A stretch of DNA of 1,983 nt, taken from assembly GCF_044324875.1 (NCBI RefSeq), contig NZ_CP172192.1. One strand, written 5' to 3'. Origin of the DNA: Escherichia coli. Lineage in GTDB: Bacteria; Pseudomonadota; Gammaproteobacteria; Enterobacterales; Enterobacteriaceae. The position numbers and the translations under genes are program-made. How positions within the stretch are numbered: the first letter of the stretch is position 1; each line of letters starts with the position of its first letter. Positions 34 to 1,933 of this stretch are shown here, one piece after another. Under the pieces are notes generated by a model that saw only the letters and a list, made by a program, of their open reading frames with translations, was not told the origin of the DNA and searched no databases.

Positions 34-288
34 AAATTCCCGCCGTTTCTCGGTTTTTTGAGCGTCGCAGACCGCACGACAAACGAAACGAAGTGTAGTT
101 TGTATGAGTGCGCACTTCGTGAGATTCCCCGACTGCCAGTTTGTCGATCGCGCGGAACAGCTGTGGCACGAAAACGGCAGAATGATTTGCTGTCCGGTTG
201 CCAGAACTGCGCGCTTACGTGGAGGGCGGCGCGGCGCAAAAAACTGCCGACATTGCGCCAGTGTTCCGGTGACACAAACCCGCAGAAA

Positions 289-372
289 TCGGGACAGGAT
301 GTGGGAATGTCGGACCGCGCACGCTCGCTCAGACATTCCCCACCTGGTCAGGGCTTCGCCCCGACACCCCGC
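289..372 (+). repeat. 84-bp arm of a perfect inverted repeat (internal copy)
   Basis: Compared by eye base by base: reverse complement of 322..372 equals 1933..1983 and reverse complement of 289..321 equals 1..33, with no mismatches. Identity stops at 373 versus 1932 and at 288 versus 34. Confidence 0.95.
301..343. other. Nested stem-loop inside the repeat arm
   Basis: GTGGGAATGTC (301..311) pairs with GACATTCCCCAC (332..343), one extra C as a bulge, around a 20-nt GC-rich loop. The same structure exists in the other arm across the window junction (1964..1973 with 11..19). Confidence 0.6.
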
Positions 373-513
373 CAACGCCTCACGGCACGCGAAAAAATTC
401 CGCGTACCGCTCACCGTTCTTGAACTCGTCAAACAGAAAATCGCGGGGCCCCGCGCCTCCGGCGTGGGTTCCGATTTTGTGATTGACGACGGCACGGGGA
501 AAACGCTGGGTAT

Positions 514-568
514 GGTGGTTGGTGTCACGGAGTGAGGCCAACCACCTGCAAGACGGTTTTTTGTTGTT
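514..568 (+). other. Stem-loop followed by a T-rich tract
   Basis: GGTGGTTGG (514..522) pairs perfectly with CCAACCACC (538..546) around a 15-nt loop. TTTTTTGTTGTT (557..568) follows after a 10-nt gap. Confidence 0.3.
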
Positions 569-601
569 CACAAAATTGGGGTGAAAGTCTGTGGATGAGA
601 T

Positions 602-634
602 GGGTGTAAGTGGGTGGGGTTGGGAGGTTTTGGG
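602..634 (+). other. G-run cluster fitting a G-quadruplex motif
   Basis: GGG 612..614, GGGG 616..619, GGG 622..624, GGG 632..634 with loops of 1, 2 and 7 nt, plus extra G-runs at 578..581 and 602..604, within a GT-rich stretch 577..640. Confidence 0.3.
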
Positions 635-675
635 TTACTGAAAATCCAGCTCAAAATTCAAGCAAATCTCGCGCG

Positions 676-711
676 CGATCCTTGTATTTATACTTAAGGG
701 ATAACTCTAGG
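676..711 (+). promoter_or_regulatory. AT-rich island with a second nick-site-like motif; alternative dso or rep promoter region
   Basis: CTTGTATTTATACTTAAGGGATAACTCTAGG (681..711) is the only AT-rich stretch in an otherwise GC-rich window. CTTGTAT resembles CTTGATA, and TAAGGGATAACT resembles the TAAGGGTAACT that I recall downstream of the pC194 nick; that recollection is unverified. Confidence 0.2.
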
Positions 712-843
712 ATTCAAATTGGCCTCCAGCCCTTGTCCCGCAAGGCTTGAGGGCACATTTGCTCCGAAATGGGTTTAGAAGTATTCTGTCGGAAGTGGTC
801 GCGTTAAAAGCGACCCCCGCAACGAGGGCAATCGTTCGGGGGC

Positions 844-943: not shown

Positions 944-1933
944 ATGAAAAACCCTAAACTCCAGTACCTCACTGATTATTCCCCCTCTGACGCGCCCTGG
1001 GACGCACACAGAAGCGTTTCTGACGACGTGGGAGGGATTTACCTGCTTGCGGCCGAATATGAGCGCTACGGGGCTCGTATGGCCTCCTGTGGCGGTTTAC
1101 TGCGTTTCGGGTGGTCTACCCTCAAGGAAACCGGAGAAACGCGTCTGAGGCTGCGTGAGGCGCATTTCTGCCGTGTCCGGCACTGTCCTGTCTGCCAGTG
1201 GAGGCGCTCCCTGATGTGGCAAGCCCGTTTCTACCAGTCCCTGCCGCGTATCGTGGCGGATTACCCTGATGCCCGCTGGATGTTCCTGACCCTGACCGTG
1301 CGCAACTGTGCGATTGGGGAACTGGGCGAGATGCTGAACCGGATGAATGCAGCTTTTCAGCGTATGAAGGTTCGCAAGGAGTTCCTGCCTGTTCAGGGCT
1401 GGATCCGCACAACGGAAGTTACCCGCGGCAGCGACGGCAGCGCGCATCCCCACTTCCACACCCTGATGATGGTGCCGCCCTCAATGCTATCTGGTGACGG
1501 GTACGTAAAACATGCTCGCTGGGTTGAACTCTGGCGGGAGTGCCTGCGGGTCAGTTACAACCCGAATGTTGATGTCCGGGCAGTAAAACCCCGTAAGCCA
1601 AAGGATGGCGAGTCCTTAGCCTGCGCGACCGCTGAACTGGTGCGCGGCGCAGTGGCCGAAACCCTGAAATATTCCACGAAGCCGGCTGACATGGTGGCCG
1701 ATCCTGAATGGTTCCTCGAACTGACCCGCCAGACGCACAAGCGCCGCTTTGTGGCGACCGGCGGCGCACTCAAAGACGTGCTGAAACTCGATCAGGAAAC
1801 CGACGCCGACATGGTGATCGGGGATGATATTTCCGAGGGCGACGATGACGGTTCACGCATCGCGTTCGAGTGGAAAACCGAGGTCAGAAAGTACCGTCGC
1901 TCACCGACGAAAGATAAAACTGAATCAGGCTAG
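944..1933 (+). CDS. rep: Rolling-circle replication initiator protein, HUH endonuclease of the pC194/pUB110 (Rep_1) class
   Basis: 332-codon ORF 935..1933 in the supplied track. Translation carries motif I FLTLT (nt 1283..1297), motif II HPHFH (nt 1445..1459, the HUH metal-binding motif) and motif III ETLKYSTK with Glu four residues before Tyr (Tyr codon 1670..1672), the arrangement known for pC194 RepA. Start is ambiguous: GTG at 935 or 938, or ATG at 944 preceded by GGTGG (934..938) at Shine-Dalgarno spacing; I chose 944. Stop TAG 1931..1933. Confidence 0.9.
   Translation: MKNPKLQYLTDYSPSDAPWDAHRSVSDDVGGIYLLAAEYERYGARMASCGGLLRFGWSTLKETGETRLRLREAHFCRVRHCPVCQWRRSLMWQARFYQSLPRIVADYPDARWMFLTLTVRNCAIGELGEMLNRMNAAFQRMKVRKEFLPVQGWIRTTEVTRGSDGSAHPHFHTLMMVPPSMLSGDGYVKHARWVELWRECLRVSYNPNVDVRAVKPRKPKDGESLACATAELVRGAVAETLKYSTKPADMVADPEWFLELTRQTHKRRFVATGGALKDVLKLDQETDADMVIGDDISEGDDDGSRIAFEWKTEVRKYRRSPTKDKTESG

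Follow-up and report, generated by a model that had tools for sequence, protein, structure and literature searches.

Introduction

Rolling-circle initiators of the Rep_1 family, whose prototype is pC194 RepA, carry out their catalysis with a single catalytic tyrosine plus a glutamate, and in RepA itself, which is an active enzyme, catalytic roles are assigned to Glu142, Glu210 and Tyr214 (PMC5703833). Members of the family bind their origins cooperatively in pairs (PMC5703833), and in the case of pKYM the binding of RepK at the origin is assisted by HU, with UvrD implicated in replication (PMC4439123). In the literature that we searched, no role is assigned to the ca 85 residues that follow the catalytic tyrosine, nor to the acidic segment of pUB110 RepU, and mutants of the RepK C-terminus are not described. 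Here, we examine an acidic segment that lies in this region of the Rep protein encoded by a 1,983-bp stretch of Escherichia coli DNA (contig NZ_CP172192.1), called the window in the following.

The window is a complete small circular plasmid of replicon type ColpVC, 100% identical to pB of Salmonella Enteritidis (NC_005002.1) and also to one E. coli plasmid. About 100 near-full-length relatives are present in E. coli, Salmonella and Klebsiella, and 2-kb plasmids of this kind are very common in clinical strains of all three. The plasmid pB, its rep gene and its protein family were all previously known; the new content is the description of a conserved module, which provides a defined target for mutagenesis and bears on the questions of pairing and helicase recruitment.

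We will argue that the acidic segment, residues D283-G303 of Rep, is probably an integral and conserved element of the C-terminal module of an initiator of the pUB110 RepU / pKYM RepK type, and not a disordered tail, and that the acidic patch would act electrostatically rather than catalytically. The module combines fixed negative charge with a nearly invariant second tyrosine, Y317, and it can be followed from plasmids of Bacillus and Staphylococcus to those of enterobacteria.

The acidic segment and its conservation

The sole large open reading frame (ORF) of the plasmid, publicly annotated as "protein rep", starts at the ATG at 944 and ends with the stop codon at 1931-1933 (944..1933, on the plus strand, as are all features of rep given below), and it encodes 329 amino acids. 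The identification of the gene as Rep, made earlier from the sequence alone, is borne out by a match to the Pfam family Rep_1 (PF01446) of 284.8 bits (cut-off 33.2; E = 7.8e-85), which spans residues 71-320 of a 332-residue ORF and positions 2-252 of the 253 in the profile. The longer ORF begins at a GTG at 935, and it is from there that the sequence-only reading had counted when it placed the acidic segment at residues 286-306. The annotation and the homologues begin at ATG 944, and the segment is therefore numbered 283-303 here. The relatives that were fetched begin at this same ATG (MKNP.../MQNP...), with the shorter Reps of Col(BS512) type starting a little further in.

Of the 21 residues of the segment (DQETDADMVIGDDISEGDDDG, 1790..1852), eight are Asp and two are Glu, Lys and Arg are absent, and no other 21-residue stretch of the ORF is as acidic. 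When the protein was shuffled 20,000 times, an equal acidic count was obtained in 0.7% of the cases and an equal net charge in 0.09%. The strongly acidic character first noticed in the sequence thus goes beyond the shuffle expectation. The net charge of Rep is +8 with the segment and +18 without it.

The segment is located downstream of the catalytic E239-x3-Y243 motif, but it is not the C-terminal tail that it had been taken for. It is followed by 26 residues, among them the nearly invariant Tyr317, and, because the Pfam match covers residues 71-320 in the 332-residue numbering, the acidic run is inside the family model. The basic stretch KYRRSPTKDK that had been described behind it is indeed present (residues 316-325), although it does not follow directly, since 12 residues, SRIAFEWKTEVR, are in between. 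The true C-terminal tail is S320-G329 (SPTKDKTESG, 1901..1930), which is basic, beyond the Pfam match and the least constrained part of the protein.

Three sets of homologues were used: the 120 closest ones in the database (67-98% identical), a diverse alignment of 150 sequences (36-84% identity), which underlies the residue conservation values given throughout, and 259 sequences, reaching down to ca 36% identity, for the charge statistics. Among the 120 closest homologues, ET(D/N)x(D/E)(L/M)(V/I)..D...(D/E)G.DDG(S/K)R.AF.W....(K/R)Y is retained by most, and the length is unchanged. In the diverse alignment, all 150 sequences are acidic at this place, with 20-63% D/E (median 43%, vs 11% elsewhere in the same proteins). 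The length there varies between 14 and 31 residues and the net charge between -2 and -14, being -5 or lower in 93% of the sequences. Over the 259 homologues, the segment is acidic without exception; its mean net charge is -8.5 +/- 2.1, that of the core is +12.2, and the overall net charge stays near +7. The comparison of length and charge that the sequence-only reading had proposed as a check was thus carried out, and the segment was found to be conserved in every homologue examined, so that the absence or lack of conservation by which that reading would have been refuted is not observed.

Embedded in the segment is a conserved motif, (T/S)-(D/N)-x-(D/E)-(L/M)-(I/L/V), with T/S286 at 63%, D/E289 at 91%, L/M290 at 92% and I/L/V291 at 89%. 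In the hairpin that follows, the conserved positions are F308 (87%), W310 (81%) and Y317 (98%), together with the basic residues K/R315 (67%), K/R316 (80%) and R/K319 (70%, with R itself at 57%). At the very C-terminus, S320-G329 has 9-80% gaps. The segment thus lies between GG-x-LK and the F-x-W...(K/R)Y hairpin, is net negative, and carries (D/E)-(L/M)-(I/L/V).

The selection acting on the segment was estimated from codon alignments of nine rep genes, namely that of the window and those of eight other plasmids (ca 70-95% DNA identity); the rep of CP041058.1, which is frameshifted, was excluded. The pooled ratio of nonsynonymous to synonymous divergence (pN/pS) is 0.28 for residues 283-303, with 0.26 for the helix half and 0.31 for the loop half, compared to 0.21 for the core (residues 1-282), 0.41 for residues 304-320 and 0.49 for the last nine residues. 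These values point to purifying selection on the segment that is about as strong as on the core.

It has also to be considered whether the acidic composition could simply reflect a constraint on the DNA at 1790-1852, imposed by an origin, promoter or antisense RNA located there or by a gene in another frame. Two other ORFs on the plus strand do touch the segment (1708-1827 and 1824-1976), and one copy of a 12-nt direct repeat is found in it (1805-1816). In diverged plasmids, however, both ORFs are broken up, altered or unrelated. Promoter and Rfam searches gave no match, and terminator-like matches occur at chance level. Furthermore, the synonymous divergence (pS) is ordinary, 0.56 in the segment vs 0.54 in the rest of the gene, so that the constraint is on the protein and not on the DNA, and it is at the protein level that conservation is seen. 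With normal synonymous rates and alternative frames that are not conserved, this explanation is effectively refuted, and we give it practically no weight.

Comparison with RepU and RepA

RepU of pUB110 matches PF01446, as Rep does, and its match reaches the end of the profile. The two proteins are only 30% identical overall and differ in host range, which is Gram-positive for RepU. Nevertheless, the C-terminal region of RepU, LDDTEEGDLIHTDDDEKADEDGFSIIAMWNWERKNYFIKE, has its elements in the same order as Rep: GG-x-LK, an acidic run with D-L-I, D-G, and an aromatic hairpin that ends with K/R-x-Y. The alignment is free of gaps across the whole acidic region of Rep (LDDTEEGDLIHTDDDEKADEDGFSIIAMWNWERKNY). 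The turn reads DEDG where Rep has DDG, and the hairpin reads AMWNWERKNY. A difference is seen at the end of the chain, where RepU stops five residues past the conserved tyrosine while the Rep of pB has a 12-residue basic extension, RRSPTKDKTESG.

Closer to the window are the 2-kb enterobacterial plasmids of the ColpVC, Col(BS512) and Col(MP18) types, which, like pB, are small Gram-negative rolling-circle plasmids with a Rep_1 initiator; the Col(BS512) plasmids we take to be equivalent to pKYM. The Reps fetched from these plasmids (ca 70-95% rep DNA identity) carry the same ET(D/N)x(D/E)(L/M)…DDG…AF.W…(K/R)Y segment. As judged from the alignments, the module is common to plasmids of Firmicutes (Bacillus, Staphylococcus) and of enterobacteria.

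The prototype, pC194 RepA, shares the HUH and E-x3-Y chemistry with Rep and deviates in the acidic segment. In the deposited sequence (NC_002013.1), the RepA ORF (114-803, minus strand) encodes 229 amino acids and stops 15 residues past Tyr214. When the sequence is read across two frame changes, the C-terminal module of the family is recovered, and the profile is then matched as far as position 246 of its 253. The frame breaks are probably old sequencing errors, although it is possible that pC194 is a truncated prototype. The frame-corrected protein keeps the D-L-x-x-L helix motif and the aromatic hairpin YIYQIFYIWKQKEY, while its acidic segment, NGDLDYLKEIDPTE, is far shorter and weaker, with a net charge of about -3 to -4. 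In addition, it has a separate, truly terminal acidic tail (…IDEIEEEQ) beyond the Pfam model. Since RepA is active with only the short version, the long acidic loop is not required for the chemistry itself. This is the only case in which a much shorter loop is seen to be compatible with an active enzyme, and the earlier expectation that such segments are usually dispensable finds no support in the clade of Rep.

Predicted fold of the C-terminal module

The structure of Rep was predicted with AlphaFold2 (AF2) on the basis of the 150-sequence alignment, which gave a model with a predicted local distance difference test score (pLDDT) of 95.6 and a predicted template modelling score (pTM) of 0.91; a model from the single sequence (pLDDT 33) was discarded. 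In blocks of ten residues from position 281, the pLDDT is 93, 78, 96, 98 and 80. The lowest internal block is thus 291-300, and the uncertain residues in it are few, at about 295-298.

After the catalytic helix, the model has helices at residues 247-252 and 254-264 and a strand at 270-274 (in R268-F-V-A-T-G273-G274). The G273-G274 motif (1760..1765; G273 95%, G274 99%) opens the C-terminal module. The half of the acidic segment that is conserved in sequence, T286-D294 (1799..1825), is predicted to form a capped amphipathic helix (DADMVIGD, residues 287-294), where T286..D289 fits an N-capping box of the S/T-x-x-D/E pattern. The other half, D295-S304 (1826..1855), varies in sequence while keeping its charge, and it consists of an acidic loop, a short strand at 299-301 and a D-D-G-S turn. 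R305-R319 (1856..1900; R-I-A-F308-E-W310 ... R315-K316-Y317-R-R319) form an aromatic and basic β-hairpin with strands at 306-311 and 316-319 and a pLDDT of 96-98. The first half of the segment is thus constrained by its sequence, and the second by a net negative charge of about -8 and not by sequence or length. Y317 (1892-1894) is a second tyrosine near the C-terminus, located in (K/R)(K/R)-Y-x-R, and it is also found in pUB110 RepU and in frame-corrected pC194; its role is probably structural.

Covariation was calculated as mutual information with average product correction from ca 158 effective sequences, for which the signals are weak and too shallow to place the acidic patch in three dimensions. 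The pairs D300-R305 (z 4.9) and G299-R305 (z 4.2) were obtained, and the covariation of 299/300 with 304/305 therefore lends weak support to the hairpin turn. A weak covariation of 307/309 with the strand 52-60 hints that strand 306-311 is paired with this N-terminal strand.

Role of the acidic segment

The first alternative to be weighed is the one originally put forward, in which the segment would be an acidic tail, disordered and of low complexity, whose task is to recruit a host protein (e.g. UvrD/PcrA, SSB or HU) or to autoregulate Rep, and which is dispensable for catalysis. The segment does sit after the catalytic tyrosine, the model is less confident at the loop 295-298, and the second half conserves composition rather than sequence. 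Moreover, plasmids of the pKYM type depend on UvrD and HU (PMC4439123), the mode in which Rep_1 proteins recruit the helicase is not established (PMC5714925, PMC5703833), and pC194 RepA manages with a short version only. On the other hand, the segment is internal to the Pfam model rather than terminal, most of it is predicted to be ordered with a pLDDT above 90, the helix 287-294 and the strands 299-301 and 306-311 being confident, and its motif is position-specific, with 89-92% conservation at residues 289-291. The selection on it is as strong as on the core. That the same layout is found in a plasmid of Firmicutes and in those of enterobacteria speaks for an intrinsic role no less than for an adaptation to a host partner. 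The label of low complexity is hence not upheld, and we consider the tail explanation unlikely. A non-catalytic contact or a regulatory role of the segment, which was part of the same proposal, is possible, although none of the present observations points to host proteins or to autoregulation.

The local ExDxDG sequence at E298-G-D300-D-D302-G303 brings to mind a divalent-cation loop of the DxDxDG or EF-hand kind. DDG is kept in most homologues with at least 67% identity, and HUH enzymes need metal (PMC5703833). In the diverse set, however, G303 is only at 23% and D302 at 28%, RepU reads KADEDG, and position 8 of the canonical EF loop is an Arg in Rep. Metal is known to be bound in this family by the HUH histidines together with Glu158 (PMC5703833). 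Measured against a conserved D-x-[DN]-x-[DN]-G with a hydrophobic position 8 and an acidic position 12, Rep falls short, and ExDxDG is peculiar to its sequence and not conserved in the family; the cation loop was accordingly rejected as very improbable.

Another option considered was a purely structural or solubility role, in which a helix and a turn are needed for the fold and the acidic residues on the surface do no more than compensate for the strongly basic rest of the protein, without any specific interaction. The capping box at T286..D289 and DDG, which fits a classic Asp-Gly hairpin turn, would agree with this, and so would the shift of the net charge from +8 to +18 without the segment and the overall charge near +7 that the homologues maintain. 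But a cap and one turn would call for far fewer acidic residues than the 43% that are seen over 14-31 positions in every homologue, and in pC194 RepA a much shorter loop suffices for folding and activity. Simple balancing would in addition be expected to make the charges of segment and core correlate, and over the 259 homologues no correlation is present (Spearman rho 0.00, p = 0.97). Such independence speaks against charge compensation by fine tuning, and simple charge balancing is thus disfavored. We have little confidence in the structural role as the whole explanation.

The reading that we favor as probable is, therefore, the one of an integral module element with an electrostatic, non-catalytic acidic patch. 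That the segment is a folded and selected feature of the family is very likely, while the specific mechanism by which it would steer DNA is put forward tentatively. The proposal is that the module presents a fixed polyanionic surface patch beside the hairpin with its basic and aromatic residues, in a protein with a core charge of about +12. The patch would work as an element of negative design, by keeping DNA off its face or by competing with non-specific DNA, and the origin would as a result be bound in a single orientation and set free once the cycle is complete. A secondary option is that a basic partner docks onto the patch, be it HU, the UvrD/PcrA helicase or another monomer of Rep. In its stronger form, this would make the acidic helix-loop and the hairpin together (283-319) a protein-protein interface of Rep_1 initiators, used to recruit UvrD/PcrA, to contact HU at the origin or to pair Rep monomers on the double-strand origin, with the negative patch doing the docking. 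We regard this stronger form as rather unlikely.

Several points weigh against the electrostatic module. The independence of segment and core charge noted above is one of them. A high pLDDT mirrors the depth of the alignment and does not prove that the loop is ordered in solution. Searches of the PDB by sequence and by profile gave no solved relative of Rep and no Rep_1 structure, and the literature on the Rep_1 C-terminus, RepU, RepK and pKYM contained no work on the acidic segment.

The C-terminal DDDIPF tip of SSB and the acidic tail of HMGB1 are intramolecular DNA competitors or partner-docking tips. The likeness to Rep lies in a polyanionic stretch on a basic DNA-binding protein that in part keeps composition over sequence, and in an acidic run that is followed by hydrophobic residues. 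The tip and the tail are, however, terminal and disordered, whereas the segment of Rep is internal, mostly folded in the model and at a fixed position in the enzyme fold. The resemblance is therefore to be seen as a functional analogy only, with no homology implied.

Other features of Rep and of the plasmid

The catalytic part of Rep has the motifs of its family. The metal-binding HUH motif, H168-P-H170-F-H172 (1445..1459), is on the predicted strand 167-177, with H168, P169 and H170 invariant and H172 conserved to at least 90%. Catalytic motif 3, E239-T-L-K-Y243 (1658..1672), is the equivalent of Glu210/Tyr214 in pC194 RepA and has the same E-x3-Y spacing; Y243 and E158 are invariant, and E239 is at least 90% conserved. 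Rep shows all the sequence and fold features of Rep_1 that were examined, including the HUH-nuclease fold, and on these grounds it is a predicted rolling-circle initiator of the pC194/pUB110 type. No NCBIfam model matched Rep. Related leads are the Helraiser transposase, which is 11% identical to Rep and is a multi-domain protein of 1,369 residues, and the IS91-type HUH transposases. Helitron transposases, to which Helraiser belongs, contain a helicase.

Four cysteines of Rep, C49, C76, C81 and C84 (1088-1195), are each conserved to at least 90% and are found around an N-terminal hairpin. Rep also has a weak Pfam match to the zinc-binding domain of IS91 transposases (E = 0.0034), and the cysteines probably mark a zinc-binding element in Rep_1 initiators.

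The 12-nt direct repeat in rep consists of GCTGACATGGTG at 1685-1696 and GCCGACATGGTG at 1805-1816, 120 nt apart. Each copy encodes A-D-M-V, and with each of them a predicted helix begins (247-252 and 287-294, respectively). The repeat may have arisen by chance.

The circular plasmid carries a perfect 84-bp inverted repeat, with arm A at 1933-1983 continuing into 1-33, arm B at 289-372 and a spacer of 255 bp; the stop codon of rep abuts arm A. Arm B can be aligned nearly position by position to the sequence that lies directly upstream of mobA/nikA-nikB in conjugative plasmids of the IncK2/Z (ca 95%) and IncI-gamma/K1 (ca 80%) groups. By this alignment, the arm is an oriT-like sequence of R64 type, carried twice in inverted orientation by a 2-kb plasmid without a relaxase. 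The sequence CATCCTGT at 21-28 in arm A is, as we presume, a match to the MOB-P nick-region consensus. Matching plasmid records number ca 2,290, of which ca 1,670 are conjugative, and most of them match only this stretch.

An annotated hypothetical protein of 78 amino acids (WP_000263637.1; 299-535, plus strand) starts inside the oriT-like arm and is to be seen as a candidate gene only. No NCBIfam model matched it. Its ORF runs up to a 15-bp stem (514-528 / 532-546), behind which there is a T-run.

The pC194-type nick sequence TCTTGATA does not occur in the window. A 43-bp block at 662-704 (cgcgatccttgtatttatacttaagggataactctagg...) is 95% identical in 2.09-kb plasmids of Col(BS512) type, whose rep is only ca 70% identical; the block may represent the double-strand origin or the nick region.

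Finally, the synonymous divergence within rep relative to the closest relatives is mosaic, with a pS of 0.4-0.66 in the middle of the gene (codons about 134-220, window positions about 1343-1603) and below 0.1 in the flanks. This suggests recombination within rep among ColpVC plasmids.

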